Positions 1 through 12,975 of a DNA stretch of 64,000 nt are shown here, in pieces. This stretch comes from Mangrovibacterium sp. Its GTDB lineage: Bacteria; Bacteroidota; Bacteroidia; Bacteroidales; Prolixibacteraceae. The translations under genes were made by a program, and so were the position numbers. Numbering within the stretch: position 1 is the first letter of the stretch; each line of letters opens with the position of its first letter. Where the stretch lies: positions 117,907-181,906 of the forward strand of contig JBKEDC010000012.1 of the NCBI GenBank assembly GCA_047975205.1. The letters are read 5' to 3'. Under the pieces are notes generated by a model that searched no databases, was not told the origin of the DNA, and was given only the letters and a program-made list of their open reading frames with translations.

Positions 1-2082
1 TATAAATTTGAAAGATTAAGTTTTTTTCAGTTATTAAAAAATCGAAGTATTGAAATTCCTATAATTCAGCGAGATTATGCACAAGGTAGAGCAAAAAAAG
101 AAAAAGTACGAAATGATTTTTTAGATGCTCTAAAAAATGCATTAATAGGAAATCCTATTGAACTTGATTTTGTCTATGGTAGTGAAGAAAATAATATTTT
201 ACAACCTTTAGATGGACAACAAAGACTCACAACTTTGTTCCTTTTACATTGGTTTCTTGCTAATAAAGAAGGAGCATTAGAGGAAGCAAAAGAACACTTA
301 TTAAAGTTTACTTATGAAACCCGCACAAGCTCCCGAGAGTTTTGTCAAGAATTGATTTATAAAAGTATTAATTATGAAAATCTGTTGCCAATTGATGAAG
401 AAAAGAAAATAACAACAGACAATCAATTATCAGAAACTATAAAAAATGCCTCTTGGTTTGTTATTTCATGGAAAAACGACCCAACTATTTCCGCAATGCT
501 GATTATGCTTGATGCAATTCAAGCTAAATTCAAAGATAGTTCACATTGGTGGCTAGAATTGACAGAAACAGAAGAAGATAAATGTCCTATTACTTTTCTT
601 TATATCAAATTGGAGAATTTTGGACTTTCCGATGACTTGTATATCAAAATGAATGCTCGAGGAAAAGCGTTAACACCATTTGAGAATTTTAAATCTCGTC
701 TTGAGAAGCATATTAAGGATAACGGCTGGGAAAAAGATATTACCAATCCGCAAGAAATGTTTGCTCACAAAATAGATACTGTTTGGACAGATTTGTTTTG
801 GCAGTATAAAGGAAAAATTAAACGAATAGATGATAGTGGAGAAGTCTCTATTGAATACAAAATAGACGATAGATTAACTAATTTTATTACTGGAATAGCA
901 ATCAATTATTATGCTCAATATTTAGAAATACAGTTAGATAAAGATGATGAAGAGAAAATAAGAAAGGAACTTGAACAAAAAAGTAGAACAAAAAATATTT
1001 CGAAAAATGCTGTAAAACGAGAAAGAGTTGAACGAAGAATGATTACTTTGTTCAATAATCCCGACGAAATTATCCCATCTGATTTCCCTACAAAAGAATC
1101 ATTTAATTATCTGGTAAATTGCTTAAACCTGTATTCTCGCGATAATTATTCAGAATTAAAATCGGATGTTGATTTATGGAATTTTTGTGAAGAAACACTT
1201 TTTAAAGATATTATTAAAAGTAAAAAAACAAAGTGGCAAAGTAGAGTTCTTTTTTATACGCAAACAGTATTTTTATTAAATACTGATATTTATAAAAATT
1301 CTTTCAATGATTGGATGCGTGTAGTGCGAAATATTGTAGAAAATTCAACGATTGATAGTGCTACTACTTTTATTTCAGCAGTAAATTTAATTCACGAGCT
1401 TTCTAATGGTTGTTCCAATATTTACGAATATCTTTCAAATAATACAGTCAAAGCAGGACACGCAGAATATCAAGTAAAAGAAGAAATTGAAAAAGCAAAA
1501 ATAATTATTGCTAATCCTGATGCAAAACAACTTATTCACGATACAGAAGATACAAATTTCTGTAGAGGAGAAATTGATTTTGCTTTGTATTGTATTGATT
1601 ATGATATTGACGAAAATCCTGAACTAACAACTTTTAATAAAAATAAATTAGACAAAACACTTAATGTTATCAAATCCCATTTTGAAAATGATGACGAATA
1701 CGAATTATTTGTTAGAGTATTTTTAACTATAAAAAAGAACGATTATTATAAATGTTGGTGGCAATGGTCATATAGTTTTAAATGTAGGAAAGGAGACCTT
1801 TATAGTCCTACAGGTATGAAATATTTTGCACAAAGTAAAAATTGGCATAGAGAATATTTGAAAGATTTATTTACCCAATTGATTGATAAAGGTAATTTTA
1901 AGCAAATTATAGATGATTATATTATTCCTACAGATATGCCGAATTGGAAACAACGACTAATAAAAGACGAAAATTTGCTAAAAGGTGCTACATTTATTCT
2001 TGTCCCTGATGATAATTCATATTGTAAATTGGCTTGGCAACAAAGACCAAGCAGAGAAGACCAAGTAAAGAAAATTAAATAA
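1..2082 (+). CDS. DUF262 (ParB/Srx-fold, GmrSD N-terminal-like) domain protein; the 5' end runs off the window
   Basis: Frame 1 is open from nt 1. Translating 1-234 gives ...IEIPIIQRDYAQGR... and ...LDGQQRLTTLFLLHW, the two signature DUF262 motifs. IKMNARGKALTPFENFK matches the central DUF262 motif. The ORF-track start at 235 is an internal TTG. Stop is TAA at 2080-2082. I recognised no DUF1524/His-Me nuclease motif in the C-terminal half. Confidence 0.8.
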   Translation, partial: YKFERLSFFQLLKNRSIEIPIIQRDYAQGRAKKEKVRNDFLDALKNALIGNPIELDFVYGSEENNILQPLDGQQRLTTLFLLHWFLANKEGALEEAKEHLLKFTYETRTSSREFCQELIYKSINYENLLPIDEEKKITTDNQLSETIKNASWFVISWKNDPTISAMLIMLDAIQAKFKDSSHWWLELTETEEDKCPITFLYIKLENFGLSDDLYIKMNARGKALTPFENFKSRLEKHIKDNGWEKDITNPQEMFAHKIDTVWTDLFWQYKGKIKRIDDSGEVSIEYKIDDRLTNFITGIAINYYAQYLEIQLDKDDEEKIRKELEQKSRTKNISKNAVKRERVERRMITLFNNPDEIIPSDFPTKESFNYLVNCLNLYSRDNYSELKSDVDLWNFCEETLFKDIIKSKKTKWQSRVLFYTQTVFLLNTDIYKNSFNDWMRVVRNIVENSTIDSATTFISAVNLIHELSNGCSNIYEYLSNNTVKAGHAEYQVKEEIEKAKIIIANPDAKQLIHDTEDTNFCRGEIDFALYCIDYDIDENPELTTFNKNKLDKTLNVIKSHFENDDEYELFVRVFLTIKKNDYYKCWWQWSYSFKCRKGDLYSPTGMKYFAQSKNWHREYLKDLFTQLIDKGNFKQIIDDYIIPTDMPNWKQRLIKDENLLKGATFILVPDDNSYCKLAWQQRPSREDQVKKIK

Positions 2083-2092
2083 GTACAGTTAA

Positions 2093-2124
2093 AAAACAAT
2101 CCCAATGTTTTCAGGGACTGTTTT
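2093..2124 (+). terminator. Possible intrinsic terminator after the DUF262 gene
   Basis: aaaacaatccc (2093-2103) pairs with gggactgtttt (2114-2124) with one mismatch and a 10-nt loop. A T-rich tail (cattttcg) follows. It starts 11 nt after the stop codon. Confidence 0.35.
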
Positions 2125-2170
2125 CATTTTCGAAAATACAACTACGTCATGCTTTGTCTTACTCTCAATT

Positions 2171-2178
2171 TACCTTTG
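2171..2178 (+). promoter_or_regulatory. Bacteroidota-type -7 promoter element (TAnnTTTG) for the AAA+ ATPase operon
   Basis: TACCTTTG at 2171-2178, with 17 nt between the box and the ATG at 2196. The same geometry is seen upstream of rsfS and the HAD gene, and with 19 nt upstream of folP and the SLC13 gene. The motif is frequent by chance in A/T-rich DNA, so only its position supports the call. Confidence 0.35.
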
Positions 2179-2195
2179 TCAAAAAAGATAGGTTT

Positions 2196-3869
2196 ATGGA
2201 AAGTATCACAAAGAAACAAATTCTGGAAAGCATTGGGAAAGTGTACGAACAATCAAAAAATTGTAAGCTTGAAAATTTATTTTTTGAAAGCATAAAATCT
2301 GAACTACATACGCTTTCCCAATATTTCAAAACGTCAGAGAATCAAACCTTTTTTATTGCAATGGTTTTTGCTCTAAACTACAAAGGGGACACTGTTGATT
2401 TAAACGATTTAATAGATTATTTTGAATGTAATCCAATGAAAATTTTGGAATACAGCGATGATTTTGAGTACTTACACAAAGTTGGGATTTTTGAAAAAAA
2501 GAAATCGAGACACCGTGTGAAGTTAGCAGGAGCTAATGACCAATTTGTTATTCATGAAAAAATCACAGAAGCCATTTTGCAAAACAAACCTTTGCCCAAA
2601 ATCAACGAGAATAAAATAAGTGGTATAATAGATTTGTTAGAACAGTTATACAAATTGGGCGATCAACGAGACGATGATAAAATTTCAACCTTTGAACTAT
2701 TTTGGGAAGTTGATAAATTGATTTTAGATAATGCGCATTTTCCGTTAATAGAAAAAGTAAAACAATTCAGTTTAAGTACAGAAGACACTTATCTTTTTTT
2801 ATACTTGATATGGAAAACAGTGTCAGGAAACGAATCTACAGATATTGGAAGAGCTTTGGATGGTATTTATGATAGTTCATCAGAGAGAGTAAATGAAATA
2901 CAAAAATTGTTGTCTGGCAATCATATCCTTATCAATAATAATCTGATTGAAATTATAGAAGCTCAATTTTTCAATGATACCGAAATGAAATTGACGGATA
3001 CTTCTCTTCAACTTCTGAATGATTGTGACATTAAACTTTTTCTAAACAAAAAGAGAAAAGATAATATCATTGTTCCTTCGGAAGTTGTTTATCGTAAATT
3101 GGTTTTTGATAATGAGGAGATGAATCAATTAGAAACGCTTCAAAATTTACTTCAGGAAGCTAAATATCATGAAACACAGATAAGGTTGACAAATAAAGGT
3201 CTACCCCAAGGAATTGCAGTTTTATTGCACGGTGCACCTGGAACAGGAAAAACCGAAATTGTAAAACAATTAGCAAAAGCTACAAACCGAGAAATAATGA
3301 AAGTAGAAATCAGCCAGTCAAAATCTATGTGGTTTGGCGAAAGTGAAAAAATCATTAAACGTATTTTTACGGATTACAGAGCATATGCAAAAGAATCTAA
3401 ACTAACGCCTATTTTATTCTTTAATGAAGCGGATGCCATTATTTCTAAAAGGAAAGAAAACAGTAATTCCAATGTAGCTCAAACTGAAAATGCTATTCAA
3501 AATATTATACTGGAAGAGCTTGAAAACTTTGAAGGTATTTTAATAGCAACTACCAACTTAGCTAATAATTTGGACACTGCTTTTGAACGAAGATTTTTAT
3601 TCAAATTACCTTTCAACAAACCTACAAAAGAGGTAAGAGCTAAAATATGGAAATCAAAATTACCACATTTAGATAATGAGAGTTGTCAATTGCTCGCAGA
3701 TAAGTTTGACTTTTCAGGCGGACAGATAGATAATATTATTCGCAAAAGTGAAATACAGGAAATTGTTCATGGCACTGTGACTAATTTTGAACAAATACAG
3801 TCATTTTGTAATGAAGAATCCATCAGTATAAATAGAACTAAAATTGGATTTGGCTATGCACACGATTAA
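2196..3869 (+). CDS. AAA+ ATPase (classic-clade AAA module at the C-terminus) with an unassigned N-terminal region of about 330 aa
   Basis: Walker A is LLHGAPGTGKTE. The Walker B region is ILFFNEADAI, with N-E where FtsH in this window has IIFIDEIDA. Sensor-1 is IATTN, and AFERRF is arginine-finger-like. I prefer the ATG at 2196 (MESITKK) because the ORF-track TTG at 2154 lies upstream of the putative -7 box. Confidence 0.85.
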   Translation: MESITKKQILESIGKVYEQSKNCKLENLFFESIKSELHTLSQYFKTSENQTFFIAMVFALNYKGDTVDLNDLIDYFECNPMKILEYSDDFEYLHKVGIFEKKKSRHRVKLAGANDQFVIHEKITEAILQNKPLPKINENKISGIIDLLEQLYKLGDQRDDDKISTFELFWEVDKLILDNAHFPLIEKVKQFSLSTEDTYLFLYLIWKTVSGNESTDIGRALDGIYDSSSERVNEIQKLLSGNHILINNNLIEIIEAQFFNDTEMKLTDTSLQLLNDCDIKLFLNKKRKDNIIVPSEVVYRKLVFDNEEMNQLETLQNLLQEAKYHETQIRLTNKGLPQGIAVLLHGAPGTGKTEIVKQLAKATNREIMKVEISQSKSMWFGESEKIIKRIFTDYRAYAKESKLTPILFFNEADAIISKRKENSNSNVAQTENAIQNIILEELENFEGILIATTNLANNLDTAFERRFLFKLPFNKPTKEVRAKIWKSKLPHLDNESCQLLADKFDFSGGQIDNIIRKSEIQEIVHGTVTNFEQIQSFCNEESISINRTKIGFGYAHD

Positions 3870-4419
3870 AATAAAAGACCAAAACATTTTATTGTTATCA
3901 GATACGCATGGTAAACATCGTTTAATCGATATTCCTAAAAATATTCAGATTGTAATTCATTGTGGAGATATTTGTAATGCAGGAGATATGGATGAAATTT
4001 TTGATTGGTATGTTAAATTAGAAATACCACATAAAATATTTATTCATGGAAATCACGATTTACCTTTCGAATTAGAACCAGAATGGGGTAAAAAATTGAT
4101 ACCCAAAAACATTATATGGTTAAATGACGAATCGATTGTAATAAGTGACATAAACATAATGGGAATAAGTGCTTTCCCTTTTTACAAAGGAATCGAAACG
4201 AAAAATAAAATCGATATCATTGCATTACATTATCCTCCTCACGGTATTTTAGATAATGGGTTTGGCAGTAAAGAAATTAGTGATTTTGTATTTCAGTTTG
4301 AGCCAAAGTACCACATATTTGGACACAATCATTCCAACTATGGGATAGAAAAACACAAAAACATTCAGTATATTAACGCATCTATTTATCATAAGTTATG
4401 TCAAAAAGAGAATCAATAG
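3856..4419 (+). CDS. Small calcineurin-like metallophosphoesterase
   Basis: All five metallophosphoesterase motifs are present in order: LSDTHG (DxH), HCGD (GD), HGNHD (GNHD), LHYPPHG (H) and FGHNH (GHxH). The ATG at 3856 overlaps the ATPase stop (3867-3869) by 14 nt. Confidence 0.85.
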   Translation: MHTIKIKDQNILLLSDTHGKHRLIDIPKNIQIVIHCGDICNAGDMDEIFDWYVKLEIPHKIFIHGNHDLPFELEPEWGKKLIPKNIIWLNDESIVISDINIMGISAFPFYKGIETKNKIDIIALHYPPHGILDNGFGSKEISDFVFQFEPKYHIFGHNHSNYGIEKHKNIQYINASIYHKLCQKENQ

Positions 4420-5300
4420 CAAGGTATAATCTCATTATAAAAAAATTAAGAAAGCGACCTGCGACATTTGCCGAAATTGAAGAATATCTTGCCTTGGAAT
4501 CAGAAATTCAAGCCTACAATTTCAATATTTCAAAGCGTACATTTCAACGAGATAGAGACGACATTCGGTCTTTGTACAATATTGATATTTTGTTTGACTT
4601 TTCTAAAAAAGTCTATTACATAGATTTTGACGAACAACCCGAAGCAAACGAAAGGATATTGGAAGCTTTCGATACATTTAATGCTTTAAATTTAACAGAT
4701 AGGCTTTCTAAGCATATTCATTTTGAAAAGCGAAAACCTCAAGGTACAGAACATTTGTATGGAATACTTCATGCTATTAAAAATCAGATTCAAATAAAAT
4801 TTGTGTATCAAAAATATTGGGAAGACGAATTGACTGAAAGATTAGTAGAACCGTATGCACTGAAAGAATTCAAAAACAGATGGTATGTCTTATCAAAAGA
4901 TTTAGTAGATAACAAGATAAAGAATTTTGCACTTGACCGTTTAACAGATTTGGGAATTTTGAATAAGAAATTCAACTTTCCAAAAGATTTTGATATAAAT
5001 GAACATTACAGGTACTGCTTTGGTATTATCAGTCCGAACGATCATCAGCCAGAAGATGTAGTACTTTCTTTCAATGCATTTCAAGGGAAATATATCAAAT
5101 CATTACCGTTACACGATTCTCAACGAATTCTGATAGATAATGAAGATGAATTGAGAATACAGCTTAAGCTATTCATTACACATGATTTCTTTATGGAACT
5201 CTTATCCTTTGGAGAAAACCTTAAAGTACTTAAACCTCAAAGCTTGATTGATGATTTAAAATCAACTGTTAGGAATATTCAAAGTATATATGAAAAGTAG
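4398..5300 (+). CDS. WYL-domain transcriptional regulator (N-terminal HTH plus WYL)
   Basis: The N-terminal segment ARYNLIIKKLRKRPATFAEIEEYL is winged-HTH-like. The central RWYVLSKD...FALDRL is the WYL-domain core. The ATG at 4398 overlaps the phosphoesterase 3' end by 22 nt. Confidence 0.8.
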   Translation: MSKRESIARYNLIIKKLRKRPATFAEIEEYLALESEIQAYNFNISKRTFQRDRDDIRSLYNIDILFDFSKKVYYIDFDEQPEANERILEAFDTFNALNLTDRLSKHIHFEKRKPQGTEHLYGILHAIKNQIQIKFVYQKYWEDELTERLVEPYALKEFKNRWYVLSKDLVDNKIKNFALDRLTDLGILNKKFNFPKDFDINEHYRYCFGIISPNDHQPEDVVLSFNAFQGKYIKSLPLHDSQRILIDNEDELRIQLKLFITHDFFMELLSFGENLKVLKPQSLIDDLKSTVRNIQSIYEK

Positions 5301-5483
5301 AGATTGCATAAATATATTGATAAAGAAAAATTAAAATTTTGTATATTTGCTATGAGCTAACGGAAACACGTTGAAAATGAAAAGCAAAGCAATAAGCACC
5401 GTTACCAAATCGTTACCTGACTTTTTTGATAATCTTTACAAAAGCTTAGTATTCAACCAATACAGCTTTTTCCTGAAAACTTT

Positions 5484-5516
5484 AAAATAAAAAAGATAGA
5501 GACTTGCGTCCCTATC
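5484..5516 (-). terminator. Intrinsic terminator of the phosphohexomutase gene
   Basis: On the minus strand, gatagggacgcaagtctctatc (5516-5495) is a hairpin with one internal mismatch. It is followed by TTTTTTATTTT (A-run at 5484-5494 on the plus strand). It lies 33 nt after the stop at 5549. Confidence 0.5.
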
Positions 5517-10890: not shown

Positions 10891-12975
10891 TTAAGATTCT
10901 ATTGCCGGTGGAGGAGTTTCTTCAATAGCCGGAGTATCTACACGGTTTATCTCTTCAGCTCCTTTATCAGCTAGCTGCCAAGGTCGTTTGCCGAATATTT
11001 CTTCCAAGTCATCGCCAAAAATAACTTCTTTTTCAAGCAATTTTTCTGCCAACTTACGATGGCTGTCCTTGTTGTCTTTTAATACCTGTAATGCTCGACT
11101 GTATTGTTCATCAATCATAGCTTTAGCCTCTTCGTCAATCAAGATAGCTGTTTTTTCGCTATACGGTTTAGTGAAAGAGTAATCAGATTGACCTGTTGAA
11201 TCATAATAACTAAAATTACCTACTTTATTACTCATACCATAAATACTAATCATGGCATAAGCTGTTTTGGTAACTTTTTCTAAGTCGTTTTGTGCTCCTG
11301 ATGAAATATTACCAAAGACTAATTCTTCAGCAGCTCTACCTCCTAAAGTTGAGCACATTTCGTCTAACAATTGTTCTTTAGTTGTAATGGAGCGTTCTTC
11401 AGGTAAATACCAAGCTGCTCCTAATGCCTTACCACGCGGAACAATAGTAACCTTCACCAACGGATGAGCAAATTCAAGTAGCCAGCTGATAGCAGCATGA
11501 CCCGCTTCATGGAAAGCGATACGCTTTTTCTCGTCAACAGAAATAATTTTATTTTTCTTTTCCAGACCGCCGACAATGCGATCAACAGCATCAAGAAAAT
11601 CTTGTTTTTCAACCGTTTCATGGTCTTTTCTAGCCGCAATAAGAGCTGCTTCATTACATACATTGGCAATATCGGCACCGGAAAATCCGGGAGTTTGTTT
11701 AGCTAGAAAAGGCACTTTAACCCCGGAGTTCAATTTCAGGTTGCGTAAATGTACTTGGAATATCTCTCCTCGTTCATTAAGATCGGGCAACTCCACTTGA
11801 ATTTGACGATCGAAGCGACCGGCACGCATTAAAGCATTATCTAATATCTCAGCACGGTTGGTAGCTGCTAAGATGATAATTCCCGAATTGGTGTCGAAAC
11901 CATCCATTTCTGTAAGTAATTGATTCAAAGTATTCTCTCGCTCATCATTAGAGCCCATGCTTGGTCGATTACCTCGAGCTCTACCAATAGCATCAATTTC
12001 ATCAATGAAAATAATACAAGGTGATTTTTCTTTGGCTTGCTTAAATAGATCGCGCACGCGAGAGGCCCCAACCCCTACAAACATTTCTACAAAATCAGAA
12101 CCTGACATGGAAAAGAAAGGAACATGAGCTTCGCCGGCAACAGCTTTTGCCAACAAAGTTTTACCCGTTCCAGGAGGACCTACAAGCAAAGCTCCTTTCG
12201 GGATTTTACCGCCTAGCTTGGTGTATTTGTCAGGATTCTTAAGAAATGAAACAATCTCTTCGATCTCTTGTTTTGCTTCTGATAAACCGGCAACTTCATT
12301 GAAAGTGACATTCACCTTAGAACCTTTATCAAATACTTTAGCCTGTGATTTTCCTACGCTGAATATTCCTCCTGCACCACCACCTCCTGCACCTTTATTC
12401 ATACGTCGGAACATATACATCCAGAAGGCAATAATAAGCACAAATGGCAGCAACCAACCAATGATGTTGCTAAAATAGTCAACTTCGATTTTGCTGTCCA
12501 CATATATGCGGTTATCTTTGGGCACATTGGCTTCTTGCTGAATTTCCTTCACATTATTCTCAAAGTTTTCTAAAGAGCCTACTTCTAAGATAAATTGTGG
12601 GCCTGCTGCTGAAGGGCTTGAAAATGCATTTTTCAGTTTATCGTCGTATTTACTGACGCTTTCCTTTTTGAGGTAAATTTTTGCATTGCGATTATTCACC
12701 ATCACAATGTGCTCTACATCACCGGCTTCAAGCATATGATAAAAATCTCTACTATTGGTAGTAACAGGACCTCCGCCAAAGTCCATCATGCCAAGGCTCA
12801 AAATGAGTACTAACATGATACCATAAATCCAATACGGATTGAATTTAGGAACCTTACCTCCATTCATAGGGTTGAAATTTGGTCGATTATTTTCCTTGCG
12901 TTTTTGCTTGTTTGCATCGTTTGGGGGAAAATTCCCTTTATTATCGGTATTATTCATCAATATGTTTTTATTCAA
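10891..12975 (-). CDS. ftsH: ATP-dependent zinc metalloprotease FtsH
   Basis: Walker A is GPPGTGKT, Walker B is IIFIDEIDA, and the SRH is RAGRFDRQ. The zinc site is HEAGHA. N-terminal TM segments are present. Confidence 0.97.

Follow-up and report, generated by a model that had tools for sequence, protein, structure and literature searches.

A 64,000-nucleotide (nt) stretch of DNA from a Mangrovibacterium sp. (contig JBKEDC010000012.1, positions 117,907 to 181,906 of the forward strand; hereafter the window) carries close to its left end three overlapping genes that move between bacterial families as one unit: an AAA+ ATPase of 557 amino acids (aa; window positions 2196-3869, + strand, from the open reading frame (ORF) list), a metallophosphoesterase (MPE) of 187 aa that is PDC-S10- and MPPED-like (3856-4419, +), and a WYL-WCX regulator of 300 aa, also called HTH-WYL-WCX after a putative helix-turn-helix (HTH) (4398-5300, +), the last two assigned from profile matches. 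With confidence only a little better than even, we read this cassette as a WYL-controlled mobile candidate immune module, in which the AAA+ motor and two recognition modules would form the core and the MPE would be an accessory effector. Neighbouring genes of the cassette overlap, by 14 nt between ATPase and MPE (from the MPE ATG to the last base of the ATPase stop codon) and by 22 nt between MPE and WYL. An earlier note on this DNA had described the ATPase and MPE reading frames and their 14-nt overlap, all of which stand, but the interval it gave stops at 4419 and thereby omits the overlapping WYL gene.

The three genes lie in a discrete 3.36-kb low-GC cassette (window positions 2138-5498; GC content 0.30 vs 0.37 in the rest of the window, with values of 0.29-0.32 over the first 6 kb and about 0.36 elsewhere). 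At the nucleotide level the cassette is 96.4% identical to its counterpart in Sphingobacterium alimentarium, 91% identical to those in a Myroides genome and a TARA ocean contig, and 89% identical to that in a Taibaiella metagenome-assembled genome (MAG). This identity begins sharply: against four related loci (L001, L002, L015 and L085), the 89-96% match starts at 2138-2152, which places the 5' edge of the cassette and a putative promoter at 2138-2195 (+), a block that stays conserved when the cassettes are aligned. From the left end it is about 58 nt to the ATPase ATG; the right end, which is equally sharp, is about 195 nt past the WYL stop codon, at the terminator of a convergent phosphoglucomutase-like (pgm-like) gene. 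The flanks of the cassette do not align across related loci, and the DUF262 genes that precede it in those loci share only 30-38% protein identity. Because identity is high across the cassette, its ends are sharp and its flanks do not align, we conclude that the ATPase, MPE and WYL genes move as one unit between bacterial families. No terminal repeats were found at the cassette ends, nor any repeats or recombinase that would account for its mobility.

The ATPase consists of N-module 1 (residues 1-135), N-module 2 (144-280), a linker extending to about residue 330 and a classic-clade AAA module (331-557). The Pfam AAA model (PF00004) matches residues 342-472 with 87.6 bits (cut-off 21.2), and in profile searches against the PDB residues ~335-530 align to the D2 modules of VAT, p97 and Afg2 and to Vps4/CdvC, with which a fold search concurs. 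The motor motifs can be placed individually. Walker A reads GAPGTGKT (residues 346-353; 3231-3254, +), with G346, G349, T350, G351, K352 and T353 invariant in the family alignment. Pore loop 1, KSMWFGESE (3321-3347, +), contains an aromatic-hydrophobic-Gly triplet (W379, F380, G381) and aligns to the KY(V/I)GESE pore loop of VAT and p97. Sensor 1 (TTN, with N454) is followed by a second region of homology with arginine fingers R465 and R466 in AFERRF (3546-3596, +). Walker B, ILFFNEADA (residues 406-414; 3411-3437, +), departs from the canonical hhhhDE: Asn410-Glu411 stands in place of Asp-Glu, the Asp having been replaced and the Glu kept. The contrast drawn in the earlier note between this motif and IIFIDEIDA in the FtsH-like ORF of the same window (10891-12975, -) is borne out by the letters of both.

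To sample the ATPase family without bias for the Walker B motif, a profile built from the N-terminal 325 residues only was searched against 1.84 billion cluster representatives (50% identity). At E<=1e-3 this retrieved 1,350 proteins, so that the family comprises at least 1,350 clusters at 50% identity, mainly from Bacteroidota; full-length homologs number in the thousands, 7,926 proteins having scored at the same threshold in another search. Among the 91 full-length representatives obtained from the best 150 matches to the N-terminal profile, Walker B reads Asn-Glu in 90 and Asp-Glu in one. The separate scan for genome loci included IL[LF]FNEAD among its search patterns, and is therefore biased and unusable for judging conservation of the motif. 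A homolog on an Aliarcobacter plasmid, from a different phylum and with 33% identity, reads LLFNEADA, while the nearest AAA modules outside the family, those of extracellular contractile injection system (eCIS) ATPases, read ILFFDEADA. Since Asn-Glu is present in 90 of the 91 representatives and in the Aliarcobacter homolog while the outgroup has Asp-Glu, alignment of homologs, which had been proposed earlier as a check, indicates that Asn-Glu is a derived, selected hallmark of this ATPase family and not a sign of decay.

Several observations concern the ATPase genes themselves. The gene is split into two ORFs on a Chryseobacterium balustinum plasmid (L170, 6001-7673) and in several MAG loci (L029, L051 and L060), which suggests either frequent inactivation or assembly errors. 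Two paralogous copies lie close together in several loci (L017, L034, L046). No full-length homolog of the ATPase was found in phage records.

The region preceding the AAA module is distinctive. As had been reported from the letters alone, it matches no curated family in Pfam, NCBIfam or PADLOC, and no match to a well-known housekeeping adaptor domain was found; across residues 1-300, searches that also included PHROGs gave a single weak hit, to a PHROG family of unknown function, which reaches back to residue 143. As a full-length Foldseek search returned AAA motors only, a separate model of the N-terminus was built and used for further searches. This model and that of the full protein (a monomer), both from AlphaFold2, agree on two units, ~1-135 and 144-280, with a mean pLDDT (predicted local distance difference test) of about 80. 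Both show each unit as a helical bundle that closes with a winged-helix-like helix-helix-helix-hairpin, and a helical linker then leads to the AAA module. The Foldseek matches of the N-terminus are only marginal, to MarR-family regulators and the tandem protein SarS in the PDB (E ~0.01, target-normalised template-modelling (TM) score ~0.45) and to TrmB and other HTH proteins in comparisons with viral models, the best E overall being 0.01 or worse. The predicted winged-helix likeness is thus a hint at the level of the fold, only weakly MarR-like, and does not amount to family membership.

Relatives of about 700 aa show that the two units are real evolutionary modules. Four of them (P0208, P0271, P0335 and P0348) have either unit 1 (profile positions 1-146) or unit 2 (~131-324) in an additional copy, and thus three modules ahead of the AAA domain. 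Because either module can be duplicated, the boundary between them is fixed near residue 146, and it is these duplications together with the AlphaFold2 models that give the two-module view of the N-terminus. A comparison of modules 1 and 2 with hhalign found no significant sequence repeat between them. Both modules are on average acidic (isoelectric points of 5.9 and 4.9, net charges of -2 and -7.5), which favours recognition of a protein over a classical role in DNA binding or DNA sensing. A MarR-type DNA-binding domain was accordingly rejected as the identity of the N-terminus, given the marginal fold match, the lack of a sequence-family match and the acidic modules.

The third gene of the cassette encodes a protein with a WYL domain (PF13280, 2.5e-14) and a WCX domain (PF25583, 1.7e-8). 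Its N-terminus gave no HTH hit in Pfam, while the PADLOC WYL model PDLC01457 covers residues 9-283, and its matches in the PDB are PafBC (6sj9, the nearest solved relative) and other WYL/DeoR-type regulators. A WYL gene is present within ~7 kb in 32 of 81 ATPase loci and directly downstream of the ATPase in 14. Copies directly downstream average 73% identity to the WYL protein of the window and WYL genes elsewhere in the loci 44%, a difference suggesting that the older core is an ATPase with its cognate WYL gene. Among 125 direct neighbours of the ATPase scanned, the commonest were WYL genes (12), PDC-S10 MPEs (7-8) and GmrSD_N genes (5), followed by DEDDh exonuclease, Fic/RhuM and sigma factor genes, other PADLOC candidates and then many unannotated or housekeeping genes. 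A search for some other constant partner downstream of the ATPase ended in rejection of that idea, as the genes found there are heterogeneous and mostly without a Pfam domain.

The MPE retains the full set of catalytic motifs claimed for it: DxH (D16, H18), GD (G37, D38), GNHD (65-68), H125 and GHxH (156-159; G156, H157, H159) are all present, and all are invariant in 41 aligned sequences. The protein matches the PADLOC PDC-S10 model over profile positions 8-207 of 223 (E=2e-44; PADLOC models carry no curated cut-off). PDC entries are PADLOC phage defence candidates, nominated through ‘guilt-by-embedding’ in BREX, DISARM and type I restriction-modification (RM) loci. Among solved structures, a family profile comes closest to mammalian MPPED2 (3rl4, E=1e-35), with the RNA-lariat debranching enzyme Dbr1 a far weaker match (E ~1e-6). 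MPPED2 has been reported as a cyclic-nucleotide phosphodiesterase. Homology of this kind places the MPE among small nucleotide or phosphodiester hydrolases, a grouping that does not define its substrate. The MPE of the window lacks three residues present in all 40 aligned homologs, after residue 47 (about nt 3996; consensus ..EI-LDF-F.WY..); the D and F among them are conserved in >=90% of sequences, and the catalytic motifs are unaffected.

The association between ATPase and MPE was examined from both sides. The ATPase-centred sample comprised 80 genome loci, from 95% down to 35% identity, with genes called in the fetched loci by a longest-ORF heuristic. An MPE lies directly downstream of the ATPase in six of these loci and nearby in three more. 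With the window itself and loci retrieved via the MPE included, ten independent ATPase-MPE pairs are known, of which eight have the 14-nt overlap, one a 20-nt overlap and one a 2-nt gap, and the junction is conserved down to 54-62% protein identity. ATPase and MPE identities to the window track each other across the pairs (r=0.92, the pairs not being independent as data points); in L167, for example, the ATPase, MPE and WYL proteins are 62, 65 and 67% identical to those of the window. In a quick neighbour-joining tree, the MPE-linked ATPases fall mainly into one subclade (the window, L001, L002, L015, L085, L167, L168 and L023), with L017 and L018 close by. Given the conserved overlap and the parallel divergence of the pairs, the ATPase-MPE link is old and tight within one ATPase subclade. 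The coupling envisaged in the earlier note therefore holds for the cassette and its subclade, but does not extend to the ATPase family as a whole.

These pairs also bear on the possibility that the ATPase and the MPE are two independent single-gene defence or stress genes that share one WYL-controlled transcription unit without interacting. Each gene is far commoner without the other and has WYL links of its own, PDC-S10 stands in PADLOC as a candidate consisting of one gene, and the slot between ATPase and WYL can hold a 77-aa gene in place of the MPE (in L008 and on the Chryseobacterium plasmid, L170). We nevertheless consider this explanation rather unlikely, since the 14-nt overlap persists over deep divergence, the two proteins diverge at parallel rates, and the pair is kept in loci where the WYL gene is absent (L168, L023 and L017).

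From the side of the MPE, 80 metagenome loci spanning 88% to 30% identity include a single one with the ATPase directly upstream and one more with an ATPase 2.2 kb away on the opposite strand, while a WYL gene is present in 12. Seven close MPE homologs (53-74% identity) could be examined on long contigs. Two follow an ATPase with the same 14-nt overlap. The other five each have a context of their own: behind a WYL gene (L081); with a 73-aa gene and a divergent WYL gene in an RM/Mrr/exonuclease island; directly after a retron-type reverse transcriptase (RT) that lacks the usual fused effector, together with a DnaB_C gene and a GmrSD pair (L172); after an unrelated 379-aa AAA protein (L174); and alone among housekeeping genes. 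As most ATPase homologs have no MPE, the ATPase cannot exist simply to gate it, and the MPE is an optional add-on to the ATPase, not an obligate partner. Being found behind the ATPase, a retron-type RT, another AAA protein or a WYL gene, the MPE behaves as a portable module used by several upstream proteins, which fits an effector role. The suggestion that it is an effector thus gains from its position behind the RT and the other AAA protein, but the MPE as a general partner of the ATPase is not supported (six of 80 ATPase loci, 1/80 MPE loci).

Two of these contexts deserve description. In L172 (1597-4570), the MPE homolog (53% identity) starts 63 nt after the RT gene, with a DnaB_C protein encoded before it and two GmrSD_N genes after. 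The RT matches the RT-Protease_XI, RT-Toprim_I-C and RT-TIR_XII models and has no fused effector, and is protease-less and type XI-like; beside it, the weak similarity of the MPE family to Dbr1, a 2'-5' debranching enzyme, is intriguing. L174 (2801-4576) offers another AAA-MPE pairing, independent of the first: an island that also contains HTH, RhuM/Fic and PDDEXK genes has the MPE homolog (56% identity) behind the 379-aa AAA protein, in which VFVIEDAE stands at Walker B.

The portability of the MPE also speaks to an IetAS-like toxin-antitoxin arrangement, in which the ATPase would restrain a toxic phosphodiesterase and interference by a phage would free the MPE and abort the infection. In the IetAS system, the ATPase is the antitoxin and the protease encoded downstream of it the toxin (PMC13069673), the best defence-library matches of the AAA module of the window ATPase are IetA models (PADLOC, 2.8e-27; NCBIfam IteA, 1.6e-24), and the ATPase-MPE gene order and translational coupling are conserved. 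The IteA match, however, scores 86.8 bits where the equivalog cut-off is 510, and covers the AAA module only (residues 314-532), for which reason identity as IetA/IteA was rejected. Membership in IetAS was rejected as well, because the gene downstream of the ATPase is the MPE and not the IetS subtilisin-like protease; a Pfam scan of the proteins encoded in window positions 1-5300 found no peptidase domain. Moreover, most ATPase homologs have neither an MPE nor any constant downstream partner, and close MPE homologs occur without the ATPase, one of them alone among housekeeping genes, which an unguarded toxin should not tolerate. We regard a toxin-antitoxin pair as unlikely. A WYL-regulated stress or nucleotide-signalling module outside immunity (for instance a DNA-damage response of the PafBC type, with a nucleotide ligand of the WYL domain turned over by the MPE and a cellular protein remodelled by the ATPase) is less likely still: PafBC and MPPED2 are the nearest solved relatives of the WYL protein and the MPE, MPE-WYL adjacency recurs without the ATPase and some homologs sit among housekeeping genes, but the cassette crosses bacterial families at ~90% nucleotide identity, has low GC, is patchily distributed and occurs on plasmids, and GmrSD-like, DEDDh, Fic, RM, retron and LeoA genes recur beside it, a mobility and a neighbour set typical of defence islands and not of core stress regulons.

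The ATPase-MPE-WYL operon is, then, most likely an anti-phage or anti-mobile-element module in a defence-island setting. In such a module the ATPase would be the core, a substrate-threading classic-clade AAA motor that may act as a hexameric unfoldase, and the two acidic winged-helix-like N-modules would probably serve to bind a protein target or an adaptor. As cognate transcriptional regulator, the WYL protein would repress the operon until a signal arrives. The MPE would be a portable MPPED-like phosphodiesterase effector, presumably captured by one ATPase subclade between the ATPase and WYL genes and also used by other systems built on a retron-type RT, another AAA protein or WYL alone. Bacterial NLR-related proteins likewise have calcineurin-like phosphoesterases among their listed nucleotide-signal effector domains.

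A number of points weigh against an immune module of this kind. The genes for BrxR and CapW are usually found upstream of the systems under their control, whereas the WYL gene of the window is last in the operon, downstream of the genes it would regulate. Instead of a normal motor, Asn at Walker B might indicate one with slow or altered hydrolysis. Many ATPase homologs, especially in the clades at 35-45% identity, reside among unannotated or housekeeping genes (IMPDH, FolD, CoaE), and the shares of PADLOC and defence neighbours given above are raw counts, taken without a background set. On the side of the MPE, the close homolog found alone among housekeeping genes has 74% identity, and the wider family (30-45% identity) has mostly non-defence neighbours.

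A bolder proposal, possible but doubtful at present, is that the N-E Walker B ATPases (~555 aa) make up an unrecognised and widespread immune family of Bacteroidota linked to WYL regulators. The ATPase would be both sensor and actor, its N-modules capturing a phage protein and its motor unfolding it, with plug-in effectors such as the MPPED-like phosphodiesterase that would be shared with protease-less retrons. If the ATPase does combine sensing and action, this would be a new ATPase-centred defence architecture. Defence in Bacteroidota is poorly charted, and if the cassette works in defence, a family of this size would be added to their immune repertoire, the candidate PDC-S10 would gain a defined partner and context, and the family-wide Asp-to-Asn change in an otherwise intact classic AAA motor would amount to a natural experiment on Mg/ATP handling. 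Even if it is not defensive, the cassette is a clean case of a small operon crossing bacterial families.

The remaining features of the window concern the edges of the cassette and its neighbours. An alternative ATPase start, a TTG at 2154 upstream of the ATG at 2196, would give a protein of 571 aa, but the ATG is favoured by the N-termini of homologs and by a Bacteroidetes-type -7 box, TAccTTTG (2171-2178, +), 18 nt before it. We read this box as a putative promoter on the basis of the Bacteroidetes consensus; a sigma-70 promoter scan was set aside as uninformative for Bacteroidota. An imperfect 18-nt inverted repeat (83% complementary) joins 2176-2193 in the putative promoter region to 5415-5432 in the 3' tail, away from the cassette ends, and might serve the WYL protein as a pair of operators or have arisen by chance in AT-rich DNA. 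The 3' tail itself (5301-5498, +) was delimited by nucleotide alignment and is non-coding. About 110 nt of it (5385-5498, or ~5385-5495) are conserved even in L015, although the sequence just before them has diverged there. The tail has no Rfam match, no conserved ORF and no significant RNA fold (z=-0.33), and with a single sub-threshold microRNA hit in Rfam for the cassette, an RNA element was rejected; a 37-aa ORF starting at 5378 was also rejected, its ATG being deleted in L001, L002 and L085.

Upstream of the cassette is a DUF262/GmrSD_N-like ORF (1-2082, +) that runs off the left edge of the window, and downstream is the convergent pgm-like gene. Genes of the DUF262 type also neighbour the ATPase in L001, L002, L007, L008, L016, L019, L027 and L170. 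A recurrent trio beside the ATPase, on either side of it, consists of a DEDDh 3'-5' exonuclease (~160 aa) and two DUF262 proteins, and diverges independently of the cassette (30-38% protein identity vs 96% nucleotide identity). On the Chryseobacterium plasmid the gene order is exonuclease-DUF262-DUF262-ATPase-77aa-WYL-GTPase-LeoA.

Among known systems, IetAS (Gao_Iet) resembles the cassette in having a gene for a classic-clade AAA ATPase followed by one for a hydrolytic effector. IetA, however, has only ~370 aa and is without the 330-aa two-module N-terminus of the window ATPase, and the IetAS effector is a serine protease, where the window has an optional MPE and an attached WYL gene. TRIP13/Cap6 of CBASS was considered and rejected, as the match is weak and partial (1.3e-14) and the locus contains no HORMA or cyclase gene. 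In the plasmid collection, the nearest AAA modules outside the family are those of Afp15/Pvc15-type eCIS ATPases (31-38% identity over 190-250 aa). Their Walker B context, ILFFDEADAxFGKRSE, is nearly identical to that of the window ATPase, ILFFNEADAIISKRKE, but they keep Asp-Glu, have different N-terminal regions and sit in injection-system clusters; examples on Serratia and Paracoccus plasmids (L175, 1340-3241; L176, 1256-3346) lie next to Pvc16 and tape-measure genes, and no injection-system genes were found near the window ATPase.

The best sequence and fold matches for ATPase residues ~330-540 are the D2 module of VAT/Cdc48, Vps4/CdvC, Msp1 and the proteasomal Rpt/PAN proteins. With these threading AAA unfoldases the window ATPase shares an aromatic-hydrophobic-Gly pore loop, sensor 1 and Vps4-like RRF arginine fingers, and it differs from them in its single AAA module, its unique N-terminus and the family-wide Asn at Walker B. 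The regulator has the WYL and WCX domains in common with BrxR/CapW/PafBC-type regulators of defence and DNA-damage operons. The MPE is ~110 aa shorter than MPPED2 and keeps all metal-binding motifs, and while PDC-S10 is a single-gene candidate in PADLOC, the MPE here is translationally coupled inside a three-gene operon. Our literature search found no paper describing the ATPase family or an ATPase-MPE system, and the ATPase family is absent from the PADLOC release searched here (2.0.0, 2023). Only the MPE is already catalogued, as candidate PDC-S10. As a whole, the cassette fits a known kind, that of defence-island operons combining an ATPase, an effector and a WYL regulator.

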